Source: Candidatus Scalindua sediminis (GTDB taxonomy: Bacteria > Planctomycetota > Brocadiia > Brocadiales > Scalinduaceae). Taken from it: a DNA stretch of 32,000 nt. Positions 1 to 13,813 of this stretch are shown here, in pieces. A program made the translations under genes and the position numbers. Below the pieces are notes generated by a model that worked only from the letters and a program-made list of their open reading frames with translations, was not told the origin of the DNA and did no database searches. The DNA lies in contig VSDH01000001.1 in NCBI GenBank assembly GCA_008636105.1, positions 195,068 through 227,067 on the forward strand. The letters run 5' to 3'. Position 1 is the first letter of the stretch; each line of letters opens with the position of its first letter.

Positions 1-1038
1 CTTCCCCTGGATGACGAAAAGGGTGGAGTCATCTGTGATTTTTGCCACTCCGTCAGGGCAACGACGGGGGTAGGTAATGCACCTTATATTCTAAACCCTG
101 GTAATGCCGCTGCAATGGAAGGAGGTACGAAATATGGCCCCTTTGACGATTCCCCCGATACGATACATAAAAATAAATTTTCTGAGTTACACACGCGCTC
201 TGAATTCTGCGGGGGATGTCACGATGTATCACACGCGGGAAATGACCTTCCTATCGAACAAACTTATACTGAATGGCGACAGGGACCGTATAATACAGGC
301 GATCCAAAGACATCTGTACATTGTCAGGACTGCCACATGAGACAGCGTCCAGGTTTCCCTTCCACCGGAAGCACTGAACGGCCTGATAATCCGGGGTTTG
401 CAACTCCTGAAATTCTCGGGGGTATAAAGCGCCCGCATATATGGACACACTATTTTGTAGGTGGAAGTGTTGTCCCAATCTCCCTGCCGCCTAACTCAAA
501 AGTACAACCACAGATGGCCGTTGAAAGACTTCAGAATGCCGCAACCCTTGCAATCCATGCTGTTTCTGATGTTCAAAGGATTGGTATGCTCAAATTCCAG
601 GTGGACATAATGAATACTGGTGCAGGACATTATCTGCCCACGGGTCTCACAGAGGTTAGGCAGATGTGGCTTGAGGTTTCTGTAACTGATTCAGAAGGTA
701 ATCTTTTATATCAAAGCGGTACAGTTGATGAGAAAGGAAAAATTGACTCTGAAGCTACAATATACAACACAGTATTTGGAGACGAAAAAGGAGAACCGAC
801 TTTATTAGTATGGGCTGCAACACACATTATCTCAGACAATCGCATTCCCCCAAAAGGGAAAAAGGAAGAACATTTCGCTTGTTTAGTACCGAATGATGTA
901 AAAACACCTATAAAGATAACGGCCGTATTAAATTATCGCAGCGCACCGCAGCATGTTGTGGATGAACTTCTGGGAGAAAAGTCAATAAAGTTCCCTATAA
1001 TTAAGATGACGGAGTTATCAACGGAAGTTGATTTATAG
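1..1038 (+). CDS. multiheme c-type cytochrome (5' end cut by the window edge)
   Basis: Frame 1 is open from nt 1 (LPLDDEKGGVICDFCH...) to TAG at 1036-1038, so the ORF-track Met at 115 is internal. There are three CXXCH haem motifs: CDFCH 34-48, CGGCH 208-222, CQDCH 322-336. The C-terminal ~230 aa carry no haem motif. Confidence 0.85.
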   Translation, partial: LPLDDEKGGVICDFCHSVRATTGVGNAPYILNPGNAAAMEGGTKYGPFDDSPDTIHKNKFSELHTRSEFCGGCHDVSHAGNDLPIEQTYTEWRQGPYNTGDPKTSVHCQDCHMRQRPGFPSTGSTERPDNPGFATPEILGGIKRPHIWTHYFVGGSVVPISLPPNSKVQPQMAVERLQNAATLAIHAVSDVQRIGMLKFQVDIMNTGAGHYLPTGLTEVRQMWLEVSVTDSEGNLLYQSGTVDEKGKIDSEATIYNTVFGDEKGEPTLLVWAATHIISDNRIPPKGKKEEHFACLVPNDVKTPIKITAVLNYRSAPQHVVDELLGEKSIKFPIIKMTELSTEVDL

Positions 1039-3604: not shown

Positions 3605-3916
3605 TCATTTCATAAGTGAATATATTCGTTTGACATCCGTCAAAGCCTTGTCTGTGGGGACGAGTGGTGTTACTTCTATATCGGTAAAGAAAGGAAATAG
3701 TGGGAGGTTTGTTACGATCTGGTCAAGCTCCTCGTTTGAATCAGCTTCAATAATGGCAGTAGCCCCTCTCCTGCCAGCTAATTTTCCACCCGCAAGGATT
3801 TTGCCTCTTTTTTGCATCCTGATAAAATATTCCCATTCCTTGACAACAAATCCAAGAAAATCCTTAACCGGGATATCAGGTAGTTTCTTTATTTCAACTT
3901 TTAATAAAAAGATCAT
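3605..3916 (-). CDS. muconolactone delta-isomerase-like protein
   Basis: 103 aa. The motif LPLFPFFTDIEVTPL resembles the MIase family motif LPLFPYMDIEVxPL, and size and ferredoxin-like layout are similar. Confidence 0.6.
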   Translation of the reverse strand: MIFLLKVEIKKLPDIPVKDFLGFVVKEWEYFIRMQKRGKILAGGKLAGRRGATAIIEADSNEELDQIVTNLPLFPFFTDIEVTPLVPTDKALTDVKRIYSLMK

Positions 3917-4271: not shown

Positions 4272-5009
4272 TTATATCGCCAATCCCCCGTCAACGGTCA
4301 GGACATGTCCTGTTATATATTTTGCATCGTCTGAAAGCAAGAACAATGCTATTTTCGCAACCTCCTCAGGTGTACCAAACCTCTTTAAGGAAGTCATATC
4401 TGTCATCTTTTTCTTGTATTCATCTGGGAGTGAAGAAGTCATATCTGTTTCTATAAATCCACATGCAATGGCATTCACATTAATATTTGCCTTGCCAACC
4501 TCTTTTGCAAGGGACTTTGTAAAGCCAATCATCCCTGCCTTTGATGATGAATAATTAACCTGCCCGGCCACACCAGCAATACCACTAACTGAAGTTATAT
4601 TAAGTATGTTTCCTCTTTTCTGTTTGATCATGGTCATTATCACAGCTTTAGAAAAATTATATACACTTTTAAGGTTTGTGTTAATCACATCGTCCCAATC
4701 GTTTTCTCCCATCAGGGCAAGAAGTTTATCCTTAGTGATACCCGCATTGTTTACTAAGTAATCAATTTGTCCGAATTCGTCTTTTACGTCTTTGACCATA
4801 TTCTTGGCCGCTTCAAAATCTGAGACGTCTACCTTCTTTGCCACTACCTTGACTCCGTGTGATTCTACCTCCTTTACCAGGGTATTTGCCAGTTCATCAC
4901 TCTTGGAATAATTAAAAACCACATTGCAACCGTTCCTTGCCAATTCAAGTACGATTGCTCTCCCGATACCTCTGGTACCACCTGTTACTATTGCCGTTTT
5001 GTCTTTCAT
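4272..5009 (-). CDS. fabG: 3-oxoacyl-ACP reductase (SDR)
   Basis: 245 aa with TGGTRGIGRAI (cofactor loop), NNAG, the Ser of NITSVSG, and the catalytic YSSSK (YxxxK). Length and order are classic for FabG. Confidence 0.92.
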   Translation of the reverse strand: MKDKTAIVTGGTRGIGRAIVLELARNGCNVVFNYSKSDELANTLVKEVESHGVKVVAKKVDVSDFEAAKNMVKDVKDEFGQIDYLVNNAGITKDKLLALMGENDWDDVINTNLKSVYNFSKAVIMTMIKQKRGNILNITSVSGIAGVAGQVNYSSSKAGMIGFTKSLAKEVGKANINVNAIACGFIETDMTSSLPDEYKKKMTDMTSLKRFGTPEEVAKIALFLLSDDAKYITGHVLTVDGGLAI

Positions 5010-5043: not shown

Positions 5044-5091
5044 AATCCCCCCTCCATTCCCCCCTTTAGGAAAGGGGGGTTAGGGGGGATT
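5044..5091. repeat. nested G5/C5 hairpin (terminator-like), family copy 1
   Basis: AATCCCCCC-TCCATT-CCCCCC-TTTAGGAAA-GGGGGG-TTA-GGGGGGATT. On the minus (sense) strand it is followed by TTTTCTTTATC. It overlaps the last codons of the crotonase gene (...SPLTPLS*). Confidence 0.6.
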
Positions 5092-5884
5092 CAACAAGCT
5101 TACGACGCATCATTTCAGCAAAGAGACCTACTTCATACTCGATTCCTTTTTTTGTGTCATTATCCATCGCATAATTTATACATTTCTTCATTGTATATAT
5201 TGCCGTATCGTTGTTCTCTGCCAACATACCTGCAAAATCTATTGCCTCTTTAAGAACTCCTTTAACCGGTGCAAGTTTGTTAACCAGACCCCACTGTAAG
5301 GCAGTCTCGGCACGAATCATCTTTCCAGAATATAACATCTCCTTGGCCCTGGCAGCACCTATCACTTTGGGCAGTCTTATCGTTCCACCAAGACCCGGAA
5401 TTATACTCAATTCGGGTTTTGCCTCAGGCAGACTGAAAAATGCAATTTCAGAAGCTATACGGATATCACACAATAAGGCAAGTTCAAGTCCAGCGCCTAT
5501 GGTAACACCGTTGAGAGCCGCAATCAGCGGTTTCTTACAATTTTCAATCTCCATATACATCTCGTGAGCCCTTACAAATCTATCATAATTCTTTTCGGCT
5601 ACTAACCCAGATATCCACGAACCGAACAATTCTTCTCTATCAGCGCCATCACAGAAAACGCCTCTTATACTACTTGTTATTATTATTGATGTTATCTTTT
5701 CGTCTTTCTCATAAGAATCTATCTTGTCATATATTGCATCTAATAACCAGGATCCTATAGAATTCCTCGGGGGTTTCTTCATCTTGATAATACCAGCATA
5801 TCTATTGTCTTGAAGTTTTACCTCTTCACATTCCAAGTGCTGGTATCCTGAATTGTCCCCTCTGTTCATTCGTATATCTTTCAT
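5066..5884 (-). CDS. enoyl-CoA hydratase/isomerase (crotonase) family protein
   Basis: 272 aa with FCDGAD, GVTIGAGLELALLCDIRIA and FSLPEAKPELSIIPGLGGTIRL. Both Glu positions expected for hydratase chemistry appear present (PE..., AETA). The start lies 3 bp after the upstream stop. Confidence 0.88.
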   Translation of the reverse strand: MKDIRMNRGDNSGYQHLECEEVKLQDNRYAGIIKMKKPPRNSIGSWLLDAIYDKIDSYEKDEKITSIIITSSIRGVFCDGADREELFGSWISGLVAEKNYDRFVRAHEMYMEIENCKKPLIAALNGVTIGAGLELALLCDIRIASEIAFFSLPEAKPELSIIPGLGGTIRLPKVIGAARAKEMLYSGKMIRAETALQWGLVNKLAPVKGVLKEAIDFAGMLAENNDTAIYTMKKCINYAMDNDTKKGIEYEVGLFAEMMRRKLVESPLTPLS

Positions 5885-5887
5885 AGT

Positions 5888-7942
5888 CTAAACCCTTAAG
5901 CCTGCTTCAAATCCTTCATGAATTGCTTCAAGTGCGGTTCTAACACTTACACAGTCACCTATTTTATATAACTCATCTATCTTTCCATCTAATCCTTTGA
6001 AAAGACTTTGATTGGATTTATATCCAGCCGCTATGACAACCGTATCCGCAAGAAGAAAATTATCTCTTTTATCTTTTTCATAGGTAATACGGATTTTCTC
6101 ATCTATATCCTTTGAATTAGATGAAGCCTTTAATTTGTTAATGTTATTAATATTTTTAAACTCTTTAACATTTACACCCGTTATACTATTAATTCCCGCA
6201 TCTTTTATTTGCTTTAAGATTATCCATCTGGTTGAGATACCAAACCTTCCTCCAATCTTGTTTTTCATTTCCAGGATAGTAATATTACGTTTACCCCGTG
6301 ACGTGAGTTCTACCAGCTCATCCCCTTTTATGACATTATTTTTTAAAAGAAAGCATGCAACATCCGGTTTCATTGCTCCCATTTTTGCAACGTGAAGGGC
6401 AATCTCACAACCTATCGTACCTCCGCCTATAATTACGACTTCCCTGCCAACTTTTACTTTATTGTCAAATACATCTTCGGCCACAACGACATTCCTTTCT
6501 TTCACACCCGGAATGCCAGGTACAATCGGAGTCCCCCCTACAGCCGCAATCACGGCATCCGGTTTTAGTTCTTTTATCGTTGCCATATCTGCTTTTTTGC
6601 ATAGCTGTATTTTTACGTTCAACTTCTTTATTTGGGTTTCTAAGAAATTGATAACATTTTCTATTTCTTCTCTTCCCGGAGGAATGTATGCATATCTTAA
6701 TTGCCCACCCAGGACATTAGTCTTCTCATATAAGTGCACTTCATGCCCTCTTAATGCAGCAACTCTCGCAGCTTCCAGACCTGCTGGTCCACCACCAATA
6801 ACCATTACCTTTTTCTTCTTTTTGGCTTTTTTAATTTTGTATTCTCTTTCTTTACCAGCTCTGACGTTATATAAGCAAGAAATAGATTTGAAGTTTAGCA
6901 GAGAATCGAAGCATCCTTGATTACAGGCAATACACCTCCTGATGTCGTCGAATTGCCTTTTCTTATACTTTTTTGGCAACTCTGGATCTGCTATTAAGGG
7001 TCTTCCTATCGATATTATATCTGACTGGCCATTATCTAAAATTTCTTCGGCTAATGCTAAATCATTTATCCTTACAGATCCGATTACGGGCACGTTTACA
7101 TTATCCTTAATCTTTTCCGATAAAAAGATATAAGACATCCTTGGGATGGCCATAAGCATTATGGGTGTGCGGCTCTCATGCCAACCGGGAGAAACATTAA
7201 ATGCATCAACACCCGCCTTTTCCAGCTCCTTTGCTATCTCAACACTCTCATCTATCTTGAGGCCATCAGCTATAAAATCGTCTCCGGACAGACGGAATAT
7301 TATTGGAAATTTCTTTCCCACTTTTTTCTTTGTTGCAATTACTATTTCTTTTGCAAAATTTATTCTATTTTTAAGACTTCCACCATATCTGTCTTTTCTC
7401 TTGTTAGTTGCCCTGGTGAGAAATTGATTGATCAGATAACCCATACCGCCGTGTATCTCTACTGCATCAAAGCCTGCCTTCTTTACCCTCACTGTTGCAT
7501 TTACAAAACCTTCTATTACCCTCTTAATCTCTGGTATAGTTAGTGCATGTGGTGCCTGCTTTATGTTAACGTGTGCTATACTTGATGCTGATACAGGCTG
7601 CATCTTTGTAAAAAAAGAAGATGCGCTCCTTCCTCCATGAAGTAATTGTGCGGCAACCTTGACATCATATTTATGGATCGTATCGGTTAATTTTTTTAGT
7701 CCCGGTATAAACTCATCCTTATCCAGGCCGATTATGCTCTTCCATACTTTGCCGGCCATTTCAGGATAGCATCCACCAACCACAATCAATCCTACTCCGC
7801 CACGAGCCCTTTCTATATAGAAATCAATAAAACGCTCGTTTATAAAACCGTCTGACGCAAAACCGAGGTCCATGGCCGACATGGCAAGCCGGTTCTTAAC
7901 TTCTATATTACCTATTTTTATTGGTTCATATAGTTTACTCAT
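5888..7942 (-). CDS. 2,4-dienoyl-CoA reductase-like flavoprotein (OYE TIM barrel + 4Fe-4S + FAD/NAD(P) domain)
   Basis: 684 aa. It has an N-terminal NADH:flavin oxidoreductase pattern, a Cys cluster CIACNQGC...SC, and then the Rossmann motif VMVIGGGPAGLEAA. This matches the architecture and length of FadH. Confidence 0.9.
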   Translation of the reverse strand: MSKLYEPIKIGNIEVKNRLAMSAMDLGFASDGFINERFIDFYIERARGGVGLIVVGGCYPEMAGKVWKSIIGLDKDEFIPGLKKLTDTIHKYDVKVAAQLLHGGRSASSFFTKMQPVSASSIAHVNIKQAPHALTIPEIKRVIEGFVNATVRVKKAGFDAVEIHGGMGYLINQFLTRATNKRKDRYGGSLKNRINFAKEIVIATKKKVGKKFPIIFRLSGDDFIADGLKIDESVEIAKELEKAGVDAFNVSPGWHESRTPIMLMAIPRMSYIFLSEKIKDNVNVPVIGSVRINDLALAEEILDNGQSDIISIGRPLIADPELPKKYKKRQFDDIRRCIACNQGCFDSLLNFKSISCLYNVRAGKEREYKIKKAKKKKKVMVIGGGPAGLEAARVAALRGHEVHLYEKTNVLGGQLRYAYIPPGREEIENVINFLETQIKKLNVKIQLCKKADMATIKELKPDAVIAAVGGTPIVPGIPGVKERNVVVAEDVFDNKVKVGREVVIIGGGTIGCEIALHVAKMGAMKPDVACFLLKNNVIKGDELVELTSRGKRNITILEMKNKIGGRFGISTRWIILKQIKDAGINSITGVNVKEFKNINNINKLKASSNSKDIDEKIRITYEKDKRDNFLLADTVVIAAGYKSNQSLFKGLDGKIDELYKIGDCVSVRTALEAIHEGFEAGLRV

Positions 7943-8390: not shown

Positions 8391-9614
8391 CTAAATTTTC
8401 ATAATAGTTAAACAGGAGTCATTCCCTGAATAATCAAACGAGTTTATGAGTACCGAGCTTATGTCTTTTTCCAGTTTTTCATTGATTATGTTTAAGTTAC
8501 ATCCAGGGGCCTTCTCTACATTAATAGTTGGAGGTATTAAATCATTATCTATGGAAAGTACAGAAGCTGCTGTTTGCATGGCGCCTGACGCACCATAACA
8601 TTCTCCCAAAATAGACTTGATAGCACAAACAGGTATTTCTTCACCCCTTTCTCCAAACAATTCTTTAATGGCTTTTGACTCAATCAGGTCCTGTAACTTG
8701 CTCGAATTACCATTCGCATTGATTAAGTCTATGTCATCAGGGGATAACTTAGCATCATCGATGCACATTTGCATCGCATTCTTGGCTTTTTTAACTCTTT
8801 TATCAATGTCATTTTTTTTGTTACCGGCAAAGATACTTCCATAACCGGAAATTTCAGCATAGACCTTTGCTTCACGATTTAAAGCATAATCAAGGTCTTC
8901 CAATATAAATACATAACTACCCTCACCCATAATAAAACCGTTTCTTCTTTCATCAAACGGCATGCTAGTCTCGCTTCCAGAACCATTAGCCCTTGCCAAT
9001 AATTTTCTCATATAAAATATGATGTATAAATCCAGTGAAATCTGCTCAATCCCACCTGCTATGATCACCTTTGCCTTACCACTCTGTATAAGTTTATAGG
9101 CATTACCTATCGCATCAGTGCCTGAGGTAAAGCCGGAAGAAATCGTCCTGGCAAAACCCTTTATCTTGAAAACAACTGAGGAATAATTTATGGATGAATT
9201 TAGTGCAACATCATAGCTAAGCATTGGCGAGAGTTCCGATGGATTTTCCCTGACAATATCATGAAAATAATCAGTGGTTTGAGAGAAATTCCCGAGTGAA
9301 GAACCAATAAGTATTCCAGTTTGATTTGATAACTCATCATCAATATTTAAGCCAGCATCATCAAGCGCTAATTTTATACTTGAAGCAAGAAATTTAGTCC
9401 CCTTATTAAGATATTTTAATCCTTTACGTCCTATAAATTCTTCAGCTTTTAAATCCTTTACTTCTGCTCCTTTTTTAGACTCATATTTTGATAAATCCAG
9501 ACATTCCATAGGGGCTATGCTTGAATTACCTGAAACAAGATTCTTCCAGAACTCCTGATGTCCAATACCTATTGGGGATACAACCCCAATACCAGTAATT
9601 ACTGTTTTTTTCAT
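8391..9614 (-). CDS. beta-ketoacyl synthase paralogue lacking the Cys-His-His triad (CLF/KS-beta-like)
   Basis: 407 aa that aligns without gaps to the neighbouring FabF across the active-site blocks. TISSGFTSGTDAIG replaces NACSSGNHAIA (Cys->Phe162, codon 9129-9131). INANGNSS replaces INAHGTGT (His->Asn301). SILGECYGASG replaces SMIGHTMGAAS (His->Glu338). Confidence 0.9.
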   Translation of the reverse strand: MKKTVITGIGVVSPIGIGHQEFWKNLVSGNSSIAPMECLDLSKYESKKGAEVKDLKAEEFIGRKGLKYLNKGTKFLASSIKLALDDAGLNIDDELSNQTGILIGSSLGNFSQTTDYFHDIVRENPSELSPMLSYDVALNSSINYSSVVFKIKGFARTISSGFTSGTDAIGNAYKLIQSGKAKVIIAGGIEQISLDLYIIFYMRKLLARANGSGSETSMPFDERRNGFIMGEGSYVFILEDLDYALNREAKVYAEISGYGSIFAGNKKNDIDKRVKKAKNAMQMCIDDAKLSPDDIDLINANGNSSKLQDLIESKAIKELFGERGEEIPVCAIKSILGECYGASGAMQTAASVLSIDNDLIPPTINVEKAPGCNLNIINEKLEKDISSVLINSFDYSGNDSCLTIMKI

Positions 9615-9821: not shown

Positions 9822-10375
9822 GTAGCCGTCCGCCTAGGCGGACGTTTATTCAAACAATTGCACTTAAGATATCTTCTAAATCACATCCAATTGAACCCTT
9901 GAAACGGTACTCCTGCCAATGAGAAACAAGACCTTTCCTTACAGGGTTATCCAGTATATATCTGACTTGTGTTGGTAAATCTTCATTCTTTTTTATTATA
10001 TGGTCATAAAAGTCTTTCTGCCACCTGACACCTATTCTGTTTCTTGACATCCAGAAACCAGTCTTTTGTTTATATCCTGTGACTATTTTTAGTAAATCTA
10101 CATCTTCATGAGTACCTGTTATTATCATGTGCTGGTGGTCGGGCATGAAACAATATACAGGGATTATACATTTATTTTTTTTGGCAACGTTTTTAAGAAT
10201 ATTCGTAAAAATATTTATGACTTCTGTATCCGAAAAGAGACATACCTTATCTTTTATACACATAGTTAAGTAAACAGATACCTCTCCTATGTAAAATTCC
10301 CTTGGCAATCTGTGCTGCTTTTCTTTTATTTTTGTATTCATAGACTTTTTTTCGCAGGCTGAAGCCTGCGACTAC
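9822..10375 (-). mobile_element. RAYT unit: Y1 transposase gene flanked by inverted GTAG-REP hairpins
   Basis: Left REP: GTAGCCGTCCGCCTAGGCGGACG (9822-9844, +). Right REP: CGCAGGCTGAAGCCTGCGACTAC (10353-10375), the reverse complement of GTAGTCGCAGGCTTCAGCCTGCG. The feet point outward and the hairpins lie next to the gene. Confidence 0.75.
9850..10341 (-). CDS. IS200/IS605-type Y1 (HUH) transposase, REP-associated tyrosine transposase-like
   Basis: 163 aa with the HUH-type motif PDHQHMII and the C-terminal catalytic-Tyr block VRYILDNPVRKGLV. Size is typical of RAYTs. Confidence 0.82.
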   Translation of the reverse strand: MNTKIKEKQHRLPREFYIGEVSVYLTMCIKDKVCLFSDTEVINIFTNILKNVAKKNKCIIPVYCFMPDHQHMIITGTHEDVDLLKIVTGYKQKTGFWMSRNRIGVRWQKDFYDHIIKKNEDLPTQVRYILDNPVRKGLVSHWQEYRFKGSIGCDLEDILSAIV

Positions 10376-10387
10376 TATACACGGACA

Positions 10388-11596
10388 CTATAGCTTACTG
10401 AAAATATTTGTAACATTATTTCCACCAAAGGCAAATGAATTATTCAATACGCAATTAACTTCTAACTCACGTCCTTCATTTGGAACGTAATCCAAATCAC
10501 ACTCAGGGTCTGGAGTTTCATAGTGTATGGTGGGTGGAACTGCATTATTTTTAATCGCCAGGCAGCTCACAACAGATTCTATCGCACTTGCAGCGCCCAT
10601 TGTATGGCCGATCATAGATTTTATAGAACTAACAGGAATCTCTTTTGCACGCTCCTTAAAGACTGATTTTATGGCTAACGTTTCCATCCTGTCATTTAAG
10701 GGTGTTCCGGTACCATGTGCATTAATGTAGTCAATATCCTTGTAAGAAATCTTAGAAGCAGAAAGAGCATCTAACATAGCCTTTATTGCTCCGGCTCCCT
10801 CAGGATGTGGAGCCGTCATATGATGTCCGTCACAACTCATTCCGTAACCTTTCAATTCAGCATAAATATTAGCATTTCTCTTTGATGCAAAATCAAACGA
10901 CTCCATCACCATTATTCCTGCTCCTTCTCCAATTACGAGTCCCTTTCTATTTTTGTCAAAAGGCTGACATCTCTCAGGAGCTAAAGCCTTTAAATTGTGA
11001 AAATGTGTAAACTCAGTTTGTGGTATAAGTTCGCCTCCACCTACAAGCATCACATCAACCTTCCCTTCTGATAAAAGATCAAGGGCCCATGCAATAGCAT
11101 GGTTACCCGAAGAACATGCATTTAACGATACCATGTTTGGCCCTTCAAACCCAAAATCTTCAGAAAGCAAAGTTGTTATGGATGATGGTGGGTATGTTAA
11201 GGCAACGCCCATGTCGAATCCATTTGCTTTGTCCTCAGGTGCATTGCGTAGCAGGTATTCAAAGGGGGGTAGTTCACCAGCAAGAGTTCCAATTGCAATC
11301 CCAAACCTTTCACTATCATACCTGGTAATATCATTTAAACCACTATCTTCTAAAGCTTCCTTCGCAGCAGAATAGGTATATTTATGTATTGTGTTTGCTG
11401 TGGTCTCATTTTCAAAAGTAGTGTCAATTTTAAAATCCTTGACCTCACATACACGGTGTACCCTATACTTTGAGGTATCAAAGGATTTTATCTCTGCCGT
11501 ACCATCCTTACCATTAACGAGCGCATCCCATGCATTCTTAACACCAATACCATTGGCTATTACTAATCCCAAACCCGTAATAACAACTCTTGGCAT
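10388..11596 (-). CDS. fabF: beta-ketoacyl-ACP synthase II-type (active-site complete)
   Basis: NACSSGNHAIA (Cys), INAHGTGTPLND (His), SIKSMIGHTMGAASA (Lys/His), NNSFAFGGNN. I prefer the ATG at 11596 (MPRVVITGLGLV, preceded by AAAGGA) over the track's GTG at 11662, which adds 22 atypical residues. Confidence 0.9.
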   Translation of the reverse strand: MPRVVITGLGLVIANGIGVKNAWDALVNGKDGTAEIKSFDTSKYRVHRVCEVKDFKIDTTFENETTANTIHKYTYSAAKEALEDSGLNDITRYDSERFGIAIGTLAGELPPFEYLLRNAPEDKANGFDMGVALTYPPSSITTLLSEDFGFEGPNMVSLNACSSGNHAIAWALDLLSEGKVDVMLVGGGELIPQTEFTHFHNLKALAPERCQPFDKNRKGLVIGEGAGIMVMESFDFASKRNANIYAELKGYGMSCDGHHMTAPHPEGAGAIKAMLDALSASKISYKDIDYINAHGTGTPLNDRMETLAIKSVFKERAKEIPVSSIKSMIGHTMGAASAIESVVSCLAIKNNAVPPTIHYETPDPECDLDYVPNEGRELEVNCVLNNSFAFGGNNVTNIFSKL

Positions 11597-11770
11597 GTTT
11601 AATCCTTTAGAGATAGAACGAGATATGTTTGTTTTCCCAGAACTCAGGTTTCGATTTTTCACGCATTTTCTTTTGGAACGAGCCTGTATCTGGAAAAACC
11701 GTATTATGAAGCTTGTCTTTAATTTTTTTCGAAGACTTGTACCTGGATAGTTAAGAGGATAAAAAAGGGC

Positions 11771-11815
11771 AAATCCCCCAACCCCCCCCTTTCAAAGGGG
11801 GATTCAGGGGGATTT
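11771..11815. repeat. nested G5/C5 hairpin (terminator-like), family copy 2
   Basis: AAATCCCCC-AA-CCCCCCCC-TTTCAAA-GGGGG-ATTCA-GGGGGATTT has the same architecture as 5044-5091. T-rich tracts sit on both sides. It lies between the radical SAM stop and the fabF start. Confidence 0.6.
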
Positions 11816-11856: not shown

Positions 11857-13326
11857 TTAAGCCTTAATACTTGCCAAATCCAGGGTTTTCCTATTTTTTA
11901 ATGTTTCGTATTGCTCCATGGCAACCTCGTAAGCTCCAGAAGTCTGAAGCTCTCTCAGATTAATTAACAAATGTTTGAAAACATCCTGCCAGTCAAGATT
12001 AACCCTGAAGGCAAACATTGCTGCATTGAGATTATTTAATTCTGTTTTTGCCCTCCTGAATTTTTCTCTTATCAGCTCAGTAGAATATATTTTTTCATAA
12101 ACGTACTCTAAACCATCAATAAACTCTTGAAGTGAAAGTTGCGTTAAAACATAAGTTAGATGATGTGATGTGTAATAAATCCAATCTTCAGGAAAATTTG
12201 TTCTGAACAGCCTATTCCCACTATTAAGTCTTTTATATAATGGAGTATTAATGAACGGGCACAAAATGCCACAAGTCATTATATCGATCTTTGCATCTAA
12301 TATAAAATCAACTACTTCTTTAAAGCTCTCAGTTGTATCACTGTCATTCCCAAAAACCATAGTCCCCCAAACAGCAAGCCCATGTTTTCTTATGTTTTTT
12401 ACGGCTTCTTTATATTTATCTATCGTTATTCGCAGGTTAACTCCCTTATTCATTGTCTTTAGCGCTTCCTCATTGATAGATTCTATACCAATAAGTACTC
12501 CAACACATCCACTCTTTACCATATAGTCTAGAGTTTCATCATCCTTATATATATTCAATGAGGTGAATCCAAACCAGTTCTGGTAAATGCCTCTTTCAAC
12601 CATCTTCTTAAAAAGATCTCGAACCCTTTCATTAGATTTCTTGCTATGGCCGTAGAAATTCTCATCTGTCAGGATGAGTCCCCTATACTGCCCTTTTATT
12701 TTTTCCAGCTCACCCAAAACATCATCTACAGGTCTCTCTCTATACTTTCTACCCTGAAACTGTGGTACTGAACAGAATTCACAACTGAAAGGGCATCCTG
12801 CGGTGGTGATTATGCCGGAATATCTATACTTATATTTATTCTTCAAAAACTCTCTATCAGAAAATATGTCCTTATACTTTTCCATAGGAGTTAAGCCACC
12901 ATCATACAATTTTTTTAGATTGTTATTTTCAAAATCAGAGATTATTTCTTCCCAAATCGAAACTGCTTCCCTTATAATTACAGAATCTACATATTTTGCT
13001 GCTTCATCGGGATGGCTAGTTGCATGCACTCCACCCATTATCACGGGAATTCCATTTTTTCTACACGCTGTAGCTATTTGATATGCCCTATTAGCCTGAT
13101 AACTTACAGACGTAATCCCTACCAGGTCTGGCTTATCAAAGAGCAAATTCTCACCCTTCTCATCTACTGCCAGTTCCTGCGTCTCATCTATTATGTCTAC
13201 TTCCCAATTGTTGGGTGTCAACGTCTTCAGGTAACCCAAATTTACAGGCATCTGATTTAATACCGAAACATTTTCCTCTCCAACATTGCCAATCGGATGG
13301 GGATTTATAAGTATCAATTTTCTCAT
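11857..13326 (-). CDS. B12-binding domain radical SAM enzyme (class B type)
   Basis: 489 aa. The N-terminal region looks like a cobalamin-binding Rossmann fold (ILINP..., DLVGITSV, GIPVIMGGVHAT). It is followed by the CX3CX2C cluster motif TTAGCPFSCEFCSV. Confidence 0.88.
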   Translation of the reverse strand: MRKLILINPHPIGNVGEENVSVLNQMPVNLGYLKTLTPNNWEVDIIDETQELAVDEKGENLLFDKPDLVGITSVSYQANRAYQIATACRKNGIPVIMGGVHATSHPDEAAKYVDSVIIREAVSIWEEIISDFENNNLKKLYDGGLTPMEKYKDIFSDREFLKNKYKYRYSGIITTAGCPFSCEFCSVPQFQGRKYRERPVDDVLGELEKIKGQYRGLILTDENFYGHSKKSNERVRDLFKKMVERGIYQNWFGFTSLNIYKDDETLDYMVKSGCVGVLIGIESINEEALKTMNKGVNLRITIDKYKEAVKNIRKHGLAVWGTMVFGNDSDTTESFKEVVDFILDAKIDIMTCGILCPFINTPLYKRLNSGNRLFRTNFPEDWIYYTSHHLTYVLTQLSLQEFIDGLEYVYEKIYSTELIREKFRRAKTELNNLNAAMFAFRVNLDWQDVFKHLLINLRELQTSGAYEVAMEQYETLKNRKTLDLASIKA

Positions 13327-13350: not shown

Positions 13351-13418
13351 GCAGGGTGGGCATTGCCACTAAAAAAACATTCGTTCGTGAATGGAACGGT
13401 GGGCAATACCCACCCTAC
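13351..13418. repeat. REP doublet (inverted pair) between acpS and the radical SAM gene
   Basis: 13398-13418 reverse-complements to GTAG-GGTGGG-TATTG-CCCACC. A degenerate partner, GCAGGGTGGGCATTGCCAC, sits at 13351-13369 in the opposite orientation. The GTAG foot overlaps the acpS TAG stop (13415-13417). Confidence 0.6.
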
Positions 13419-13813
13419 TCTTCTCTCTTGTTATACTCTGAATTAGCAGGTACTAATAATGCGTGCGCAATAGCATAATCCTTGCAATGTGATAATGAGA
13501 TTGTTATCTCACCAATGTTTTTCTCCTTTGCCAATTCTCTTGCTCTGCCATATAGATTTACGTAAGGTCTCCCCGATTCTTCGTTTAACGTTTCTATGTC
13601 AGTCCACTTCATCCTGTCTCTCAACCCTGTTCCAAATGCCTTAAGCACAGCTTCTTTTGAGGCAAAGCGTGCAGCGTAATGCTGAAAACAGTTTTTCTTG
13701 GATTGGCAATATTTTACTTCATCCTCTGTATATACTCGCCTAATAAAATTCTTGTGTGTACCGAAAACCTTCTCAATTCTTTTAACTTCAATAATGTCTA
13801 TTCCCGTATACAT
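13415..13813 (-). CDS. acpS: holo-ACP synthase (4'-phosphopantetheinyl transferase)
   Basis: 132 aa with MYTGIDIIEVKRI..., FASKEAVLKAFGTG and ISLSHCKDYAIA, the canonical AcpS blocks and size. Confidence 0.9.
   Translation of the reverse strand: MYTGIDIIEVKRIEKVFGTHKNFIRRVYTEDEVKYCQSKKNCFQHYAARFASKEAVLKAFGTGLRDRMKWTDIETLNEESGRPYVNLYGRARELAKEKNIGEITISLSHCKDYAIAHALLVPANSEYNKREE

Follow-up and report, generated by a model that had tools for sequence, protein, structure and literature searches.

How ladderane lipids acquire their cyclobutane rings has awaited an answer since 2002, with no enzyme tied to ring formation, and a review of 2026 still lists the ring-forming enzyme as unidentified (PMC13459092). 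The closest described systems are two gene clusters from bacteria that oxidize ammonium anaerobically (anammox bacteria). The genes kuste2802 to kuste2805 of Kuenenia stuttgartiensis encode, in this order, the holo-acyl carrier protein (ACP) synthase AcpS, a radical S-adenosylmethionine (SAM) protein (rSAM) with a B12 domain, the β-ketoacyl synthase (KS) FabF, and a noncanonical KS, and Kuste2803, the rSAM protein, was proposed as a possible catalyst of ladderane cyclization (Rattray et al. 2009, PMC2649909). It was also named as a candidate cyclase in PMC9204698. The published “Cluster I,” kuste3603 to kuste3608, has the gene order amxACP-amxFabZ-FabF2-FabFmut-PDH-rSAM (PMC10139942; bioRxiv 10.64898/2026.05.19.726425). 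Its KS pair is a functional heterodimer of a KS and a chain-length-factor (CLF)-like partner working on amxACP, while the Kuste2804/Kuste2805 pair was outside that paper (bioRxiv 10.64898/2026.05.19.726425). The subject here is a gene of the Kuste2803 type in a stretch of 32,000 nucleotides from Candidatus Scalindua sediminis (assembly GCA_008636105.1, contig VSDH01000001.1, positions 195,068 to 227,067 of the forward strand), called the window in the following.

The rSAM open reading frame occupies positions 11857 to 13326 on the minus strand and encodes 489 amino acid residues; the plus-strand frame at this place is riddled with stop codons. Its start codon is the ATG at 13326; 7 nt 5′ of this ATG lies the ribosome-binding site GAGGA. 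Over its full length, the product is 75% identical to CAJ73554.1 (P0124, UniRef100_Q1Q0N1) from K. stuttgartiensis, a protein that shares only 50% identity with the nearest paralog in the genome of the window. Because Kuste2805 is listed as CAJ73556 (Rattray et al. 2009, PMC2649909) and the accessions are numbered consecutively, CAJ73554 is Kuste2803. Judged from this comparison and from the position in the 2803-type clade (Shimodaira-Hasegawa-like approximate likelihood ratio test [SH-aLRT] support of 100), the gene of the window is almost certainly the Scalinduaceae ortholog of Kuste2803. It is already known, a published candidate for the ladderane cyclase since 2009, so that an earlier note on this DNA, which described the gene from its letters but did not name it as the ortholog of Kuste2803, made an observation that is correct but not new. 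In public records, Kuste2803 appears as “putative bacteriochlorophyllide d C-8(2)-methyltransferase,” a similarity-derived name that is implausible in an anammox bacterium.

The protein has the architecture of a class B (cobalamin-type) radical SAM enzyme and is composed of three parts. Residues 1 to 135 (12922 to 13326, minus strand) form a putative cobalamin-binding domain of the Rossmann type, as indicated by a match of PF02310 at residues 27 to 127 (38.5 bits versus a curated Pfam cutoff of 32.1), by the order of the strands β1 to β5 in an AlphaFold2 (AF2) model, and by motif conservation. The radical SAM core, residues 168 to 360 (12247 to 12825, minus strand), was matched by PF04055 at residues 172 to 341 with 73.4 bits versus a curated Pfam cutoff of 29.5 and was aligned by PDB profiles to AprD4, MgmA, TsrM, CysS, and TokK. 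It contains the C-x3-C-x2-C motif of the [4Fe-4S]/SAM cluster as C178-P-F-S-C182-E-F-C185 (codons 12772 to 12795, minus strand), and the three cysteines are kept in 87 of 87 aligned homologs. The remaining residues 361 to 489 (11860 to 12246, minus strand) are a helical domain with AF2 helices at 399 to 488, at a place where homologs have PF13282 (DUF4070). The earlier note had claimed the CPFSCEFC motif, an N-terminal domain resembling B12-binding domains, and a location of the gene between AcpS and the KS pair. All three were borne out: the motif lies in the PF04055 core, the N-terminal domain scored above the PF02310 cutoff and is a five-stranded α/β domain in the model, and acpS is located upstream (13813 to 13415) and both KS genes downstream on the same strand. 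The coordinates given for the gene were exact, but the strand had been left unstated.

Order-wide and phylum-wide searches served as a census of the gene. An ortholog with at least 70% identity was present in 91 of the 92 Brocadiales genomes; none of the 59 high-quality genomes and none of the 27 genera lacked it, and because these orthologs are full length and 70 to 98% identical, the gene is real. Identity to the protein of the window fell into three bands, 70 to 100% for the orthologs, 50 to 57% for a paralog that almost all Brocadiales genomes possess, and at most 38% for the rest. The best match in the other Planctomycetota (n = 379) did not exceed 38% identity, and a scan of the genomes of all species yielded at most 37% outside the Brocadiales among the matches listed. 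When 5.8 billion proteins were searched, all named matches with at least 50% identity came from Brocadiales, and the best named relatives included Candidatus Scalindua. Among the genomes compared, the clade is restricted to anammox bacteria. Hydrazine synthase was found in all five Brocadiales families, a result of a Pfam search that missed several complete genomes and serves only to indicate presence in each family; the genome of the window possesses hydrazine synthase alpha, which marks the host as an anammox bacterium of the Scalindua family.

Gene neighborhoods were compared in a sample of 22 loci from the five families. The rSAM gene, the KS gene, and the gene for a catalytically dead KS were adjacent and codirectional in 22 of 22 loci. 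The earlier note had named a lack of conservation of this association in other genomes as a possible refutation of its proposal, and the association turned out to be conserved across all five families. In the window, the active KS of the Kuste2804 type, with its Cys-His-His triad present, is encoded at 10388 to 11662 and the dead KS of the Kuste2805 type, a CLF-like partner with Phe/Asn/Glu replacing Cys/His/His, at 8391 to 9614, both on the minus strand. The order of acpS, rSAM, active KS, and dead KS is that of kuste2802 to kuste2805 in Kuenenia, and the Phe/Asn/Glu replacements are the same as those in Kuste2805, which are covered in Table 2 of PMC2649909. The first gene of the operon, acpS (132 codons, 13415 to 13813, minus strand), was immediately 5′ of the rSAM gene in 20 of the 22 loci, and both exceptions belonged to family f2. 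It encodes the sole phosphopantetheinyl transferase (PPTase) of the genome, being the only PF01648 gene found in this 94% complete assembly.

Downstream of this core, the operon of the window continues on the minus strand into a lineage-variable extension. It starts with a FadH or old yellow enzyme (OYE)-type reductase with flavin mononucleotide (FMN) and flavin adenine dinucleotide (FAD)/NAD(P)H domains according to Pfam (5888 to 7942), which is located 3′ of the dead KS gene in 15 of the 22 loci. This gene is followed by a crotonase of the enoyl-coenzyme A (CoA) hydratase/isomerase family (5066 to 5884, identified by Pfam), the 3-oxoacyl-ACP reductase FabG (4272 to 5009; TIGR01830 at 323.8 bits versus a cutoff of 297.75, in addition to synteny), and a small protein similar to muconolactone isomerase (3605 to 3916; PF02426), whose gene is the last one conserved in the extended cluster and stands at the end in families f1 and f3 and in part of f4. 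In Scalinduaceae and some Brocadiaceae, the core is followed by crotonase, FabG, and the isomerase-like gene; family f3 has the latter two without the crotonase. In contrast, the Kuenenia-like complete genome G049 (L105) has the four-gene core only, and the genes of the extension are not adjacent there.

The paralog of the protein is the rSAM protein of Cluster I. It is 51% identical, of the Kuste3608 type, and encoded on the same strand about 21 kb away (G000:C14:184345-185748) as the last gene of a cluster for ACP, FabZ, active KS, dead KS, a phytoene-desaturase-like enzyme, and rSAM. A maximum-likelihood tree was calculated from 87 homologs. It contained an rSAM clade of 41 sequences, all from Brocadiales, with an SH-aLRT support of 100 and a stem 0.94 changes per site long, in which the 2803 type (23 sequences, support of 100) was the sister of a group made up of the 3608 type and a third copy, from family f3 (support of 95). 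In the KS tree, the active KS grouped with FabF2 of Cluster I (support of 97) to the exclusion of the other FabF of the genome and the dead KS with FabFmut (support of 100), an exclusive sister relationship that is limited to the sampled set because a single outgroup sequence was used. Since the linked rSAM, KS, and dead KS genes all display the same sister relationship, the whole triad was copied in one block ahead of the diversification of the order, and on the evidence of these trees it is an ancient duplicate of the Cluster I triad kuste3605, kuste3606, and kuste3608. Membership of the rSAM gene of the window in Cluster I itself was ruled out by the 51% identity, the sister clade, and the different neighbors.

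The complete Cluster I (amxACP, amxFabZ, FabF2, FabFmut, phytoene-desaturase-like gene, and rSAM) was seen at G000:C14:184345-190565 (L009:9209-15528), about 5 to 11 kb before the first base of the window. In other genomes with both clusters on one contig, these were often 9 to 220 kb apart, for instance in G008, G068, G045, G049, G051, and G021; in G020, G023, G066, and G067 they were more than 0.7 Mb apart. Family f2 (L096, L097, L116, and L123; genomes of 5.9 to 7.6 Mb) had acpS away from the triad, the Kuste3608-type rSAM gene separate from the other Cluster I genes, and the phytoene-desaturase-like gene on another contig. The third rSAM copy of family f3 (genomes of 1.5 to 2.5 Mb; L114:8076-9509, L115, and L119; G016, G005, and G008) was 54 to 56% identical to both types and located away from KS genes, in G016 beside an MqnC-like gene of menaquinone biosynthesis and an mlaD gene.

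Both types of the rSAM protein share the NPHPxG loop described below, all radical SAM motifs, and a gene position beside an active/dead KS pair. They differ in their neighbors and in sequence. Among 197 positions conserved in both types, 42 were fixed differences, such as A176 versus K, F180 versus N, and I359 versus P, and R/K119 versus G was a further difference just below the 90% conservation cutoff. Compared with its sister and almost all outside homologs, the 2803 type had changed G119 to R, K, or Q, R/K176 to A, and P359 to I; position 176 is two residues before the first cysteine of the cluster motif, and the change at position 119 affects the Gly in Gly-Glu, one of the cobalamin motifs. 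This departure at otherwise conserved positions makes the 2803 type look like the more derived copy. The Kuste3608-type genes are accompanied by genes for ACP, FabZ, and the phytoene-desaturase-like enzyme, the gene of the window by those for AcpS, FabG, the FadH-type reductase, and crotonase. The two sets look complementary, so that the clusters may be halves of one pathway built on two modules of KS, CLF, and rSAM.

The AF2 model, based on an alignment of 55 sequences, had a mean predicted local distance difference test (pLDDT) score of 94 and a predicted template modeling (pTM) score of 0.91 and showed a five-stranded Rossmann domain, the radical SAM barrel, and the helical C-terminal domain. 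In a Foldseek search, AprD4 came first (TMq of 0.66), with TsrM, MgmA, OxsB, MiaB, CysS, and TokK behind it. All top full-length matches were enzymes with a Rossmann and a radical SAM domain, and TsrM, MgmA, OxsB, CysS, and TokK are cobalamin dependent. Motifs for base-off cobalamin are Gly-Gly on β4, a GxSxL-like sequence on β3, and Gly-Glu at α5 (PMC9204698). Of these motifs, the window protein has Gly-Gly as G98-G99 at the end of β4, which all 87 aligned sequences share, a GxSxL-like G70-I-T72-S-V74 on β3, and the Glu of Gly-Glu, E120, which never varies in the Brocadiales clade and recurs in 42 of the 46 homologs outside it. Right after β1, residues 8 to 13 (codons 13288 to 13305, minus strand) form the loop NPHPIG. 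Its N8, P9, and H10 are invariant in 41 of 41 sequences of the Brocadiales clade and G13 in 38 of 38 sequences of the two main types, while position 10 is mostly A, K, or G in the 46 outside homologs. [quoted passage not shown] Cobalamin dependence of the enzyme is likewise predicted from its motifs, and CobS and CbiB are encoded in the genome.

To explain these data, the gene would encode a Kuste2803-type class B radical SAM enzyme that works with the KS/CLF-like pair on a carrier-bound chain toward a ladderane precursor by formation of C-C bonds. As a whole, this explanation has about an even chance of being right, and its parts differ in strength. That the rSAM protein serves a dedicated lipid pathway of anammox bacteria together with the KS pair is probable; that this pathway leads to ladderanes is slightly favored; that the chemistry is C-C bond formation instead of methylation can be proposed only tentatively. 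The rSAM protein and its cognate heterodimer may act as a unit on a short acyl or enoyl chain attached to a carrier, most likely amxACP, which is encoded 16 kb away and would be loaded by the AcpS of the operon head. A 5′-deoxyadenosyl radical could take a hydrogen from an unactivated carbon, and the substrate radical could, with assistance of cobalamin, form a new C-C bond by ring closure or coupling and not undergo simple methylation. Reduction, dehydration, and desaturation between elongations may fall to FabG, the FadH-type reductase, crotonase, and the isomerase-like protein of this operon along with two Cluster I enzymes, FabZ and the phytoene-desaturase-like one, and the product would be a precursor of ladderane lipids. 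A bolder version is speculative and doubtful as a whole: rSAM, active KS, and dead KS could be one catalytic module in which the heterodimer holds or extends the chain while the radical enzyme acts on it, and two such modules, retained in anammox bacteria since before the order diversified, would be kept for distinct stages of ladderane synthesis or distinct ring systems, with a His-on cobalamin that would be the first in class B.

Several points weigh against the C-C bond-forming ladderane enzyme. Methylation is the reaction of most characterized class B enzymes. AprD4, which has the closest solved fold, binds no cobalamin, so that the fold alone is no proof of cobalamin use, and the Gly preceding Glu120 in the Gly-Glu motif has been lost in the 2803 type and replaced by Arg, Lys, or Gln, the window protein having R119-E120. 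Because anammox metabolism is apparently common to all sampled Brocadiales, the distribution of the gene does not tell ladderanes apart from other traits specific to the order. The operon contains no ACP gene, the three ACP genes of the genome all being elsewhere, and since AcpS is in addition the sole PPTase, its adjacency argues less strongly for an acyl-ACP substrate than it seems to; moreover, crotonase and FadH-type enzymes usually act on CoA thioesters. When kuste2802 to kuste2805 were expressed in Escherichia coli, no new fatty acids appeared and the proteins were mostly insoluble (Javidpour 2016, PMC4790861). In the literature, no protein encoded by the cluster is tied to ladderanes by experiment.

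The main competing explanation, unlikely on balance but deserving of consideration, is a radical SAM C-methyltransferase that depends on cobalamin, the most frequent activity in class B, and would methylate an acyl chain at an unactivated carbon. The products may be mid-chain methyl-branched fatty acids or methyl groups that are later made into rings, as in proposals of cyclopropane formation followed by rearrangement. In 2005, Sinninghe Damste reportedly found 10-methylhexadecanoic acid and related branched acids in anammox bacteria, which speaks for a methylase. Such 10-methyl C16 acids also occur outside the Brocadiales, in bacteria that would lack this clade, which speaks against it. A route to ladderanes via installed methyl or cyclopropyl groups has been discussed (PMC10139942) and counts for methylation, as do those cobalamin motifs that are conserved and the best sequence matches among NCBIfam and PDB entries, which include PhpK, HpnR, MgmA, TsrM, TokK, and CysS. 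The NCBIfam scores themselves, however, were 5- to 10-fold below the family cutoffs (bits/cutoff of 105/600 for PhpK, 92/481 for BchE, 87/578 for HpnJ, 75/360 for MgmA, 73.2/360 for TIGR04072, 65/650 for HpnR, and 59.5/500 for AprD4). This also means that the protein does not cluster tightly with a characterized family of other function, an outcome on which the proposal in the earlier note had depended. That proposal, an action on an acyl-ACP intermediate, for example by cyclization, C-C coupling, or methylation, withstood both of its refuting conditions and is supported as far as sequence goes. In sequence similarity networks of two reviews, Kuste2803 was among class B enzymes of nonmethylating or unknown function (PMC9204698, PMC12931638), one of them grouping it with BchE and HpnJ in the main cluster (PMC9204698), which argues against methylation. 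The nonmethylating class B enzymes BchE, HpnJ, and OxsB have the same domain architecture and perform ring formation or ring contraction, chemistry of the sort proposed for the window protein, but their substrates are a tetrapyrrole, a hopanoid, and a nucleoside and not carrier-bound acyl chains, and OxsB was only the eighth fold match. Finally, the tight coupling with KS and CLF in two paralogous triads would be unexpected for a simple tailoring methylase.

TIGR04072 (“rSAM_ladder_B12”) is a class B family of B12-binding/radical SAM proteins of lipid biosynthesis, comprises genes of the kuste3342/kuste3343 type shared with Deltaproteobacteria, and was named for ladderane-candidate clusters. 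Membership of the window protein was ruled out by 73.2 bits against a cutoff of 360. The best match to TIGR04072 in the genome was another gene, on contig C59, with 322.7 bits just below the cutoff. About 20 class-B-like rSAM genes of this genome (G000) matched the window protein or TIGR04072 with E values below 1e-5, unusually many for a genome of 3 Mb.

Alternatively, the gene may have no role in ladderane synthesis, either because the triad makes another acyl product specific to the Brocadiales or because the rSAM protein has a nonlipid target and merely shares an operon with the essential acpS gene. As the gene for the sole PPTase, acpS gives the operon a housekeeping head; the literature offers no experimental tie of the cluster to ladderanes; and many order-specific traits occur in every sampled genome of the order. 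Nevertheless, this possibility is improbable: the triad remains adjacent in family f2 without a neighboring acpS (L096, L097), it duplicates that of the cluster containing amxACP and amxFabZ, and the downstream genes all encode enzymes of acyl chains.

AprD4, a radical SAM 1,2-diol dehydratase (PDB 6FD2), does not bind cobalamin (PMC12931638). It was the best match with a solved structure by sequence profile (E value of 5.6e-31) and by fold, yet at 16 to 17% identity, and the window protein keeps Gly-Gly, GxTxV, and the Glu of Gly-Glu among the cobalamin motifs. An enzyme of this kind, which would use a noncobalamin Rossmann domain for a cofactor-independent dehydration, isomerization, or desaturation of a lipid intermediate, would agree with the loss of the Gly from the Gly-Glu motif of the 2803 type but is very improbable, because PF02310 scored above its curated cutoff, Gly98-Gly99, GxTxV, and Glu120 are conserved, the NxHxxG loop is invariant in the clade, the AprD4 family model reached 59.5 instead of 500 bits with a sequence alignment that spans the radical SAM core only, and the genome has CobS and CbiB.

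Other homologs gave little information on the function. The nearest one outside the anammox bacteria, L015 (37% identity, support of 91), is flanked by genes for a methyltransferase, an Na/H exchanger, and MgsA, and is uninformative with respect to lipids. The third paralog of the genome (contig C8, 36% identity) sits among the housekeeping genes for DNA polymerase III delta′, RNase Y, and MnmG. Non-anammox homologs near KS or FabG genes (Geobacter L033 and L038; L055; L026) were outside the anammox clade and match the separate clusters of the kuste3335 to kuste3352 type. L033, which contains a stop codon, was dropped as a reference from one alignment.

The locus and its surroundings show several further features. 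A gene for a REP-associated tyrosine transposase (RAYT; 9850 to 10341, minus strand) lies between the two KS genes of the window and separates them by 773 bp, compared to 10 to 75 bp in several other sampled loci; among these loci, a RAYT gene splits the KS pair in the genome of the window only. The spacer between acpS and the rSAM gene (13351 to 13418) contains a palindromic REP-like pair. Between the stop codon of the rSAM gene and the start of the KS gene, there are a G/C-rich hairpin (CCCCC-TTTGAAA-GGGGG) and a second short stem followed by a T-run (11760 to 11810, minus strand); these elements look like an intrinsic terminator or attenuator within the operon. The gap between the rSAM and KS genes was about 1.3 kb at L103:10482-11847 of the Brocadiaceae genome G045, versus 40 to 270 bp elsewhere, indicating that something was inserted. 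At the edge of the window (1 to 1038, plus strand), an open-ended reading frame with several CxxCH heme-binding motifs encodes a multiheme cytochrome c, which is typical of anammox genomes.

The gene is one of two known candidates of the cobalamin type among the radical SAM proteins, and another anammox copy therefore adds nothing by itself. What is new are comparative points of modest weight, namely, the order-wide synteny of the triad, its duplication as a block with Cluster I, the His loop specific to the clade, and the substitutions specific to the 2803 type. Because the rSAM gene is inseparable from the active and the dead KS gene across the order and was duplicated together with them, its product is best expressed and assayed in the presence of holo-amxACP, the accessory reductases, and the KS pair encoded beside it, and not alone as in 2016. 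The comparative points thereby give a better experimental design than the expression of single genes and of the four-gene set performed so far, and they single out His10 and the residues altered in the 2803 type, 119 and 176, as targets for mutagenesis.

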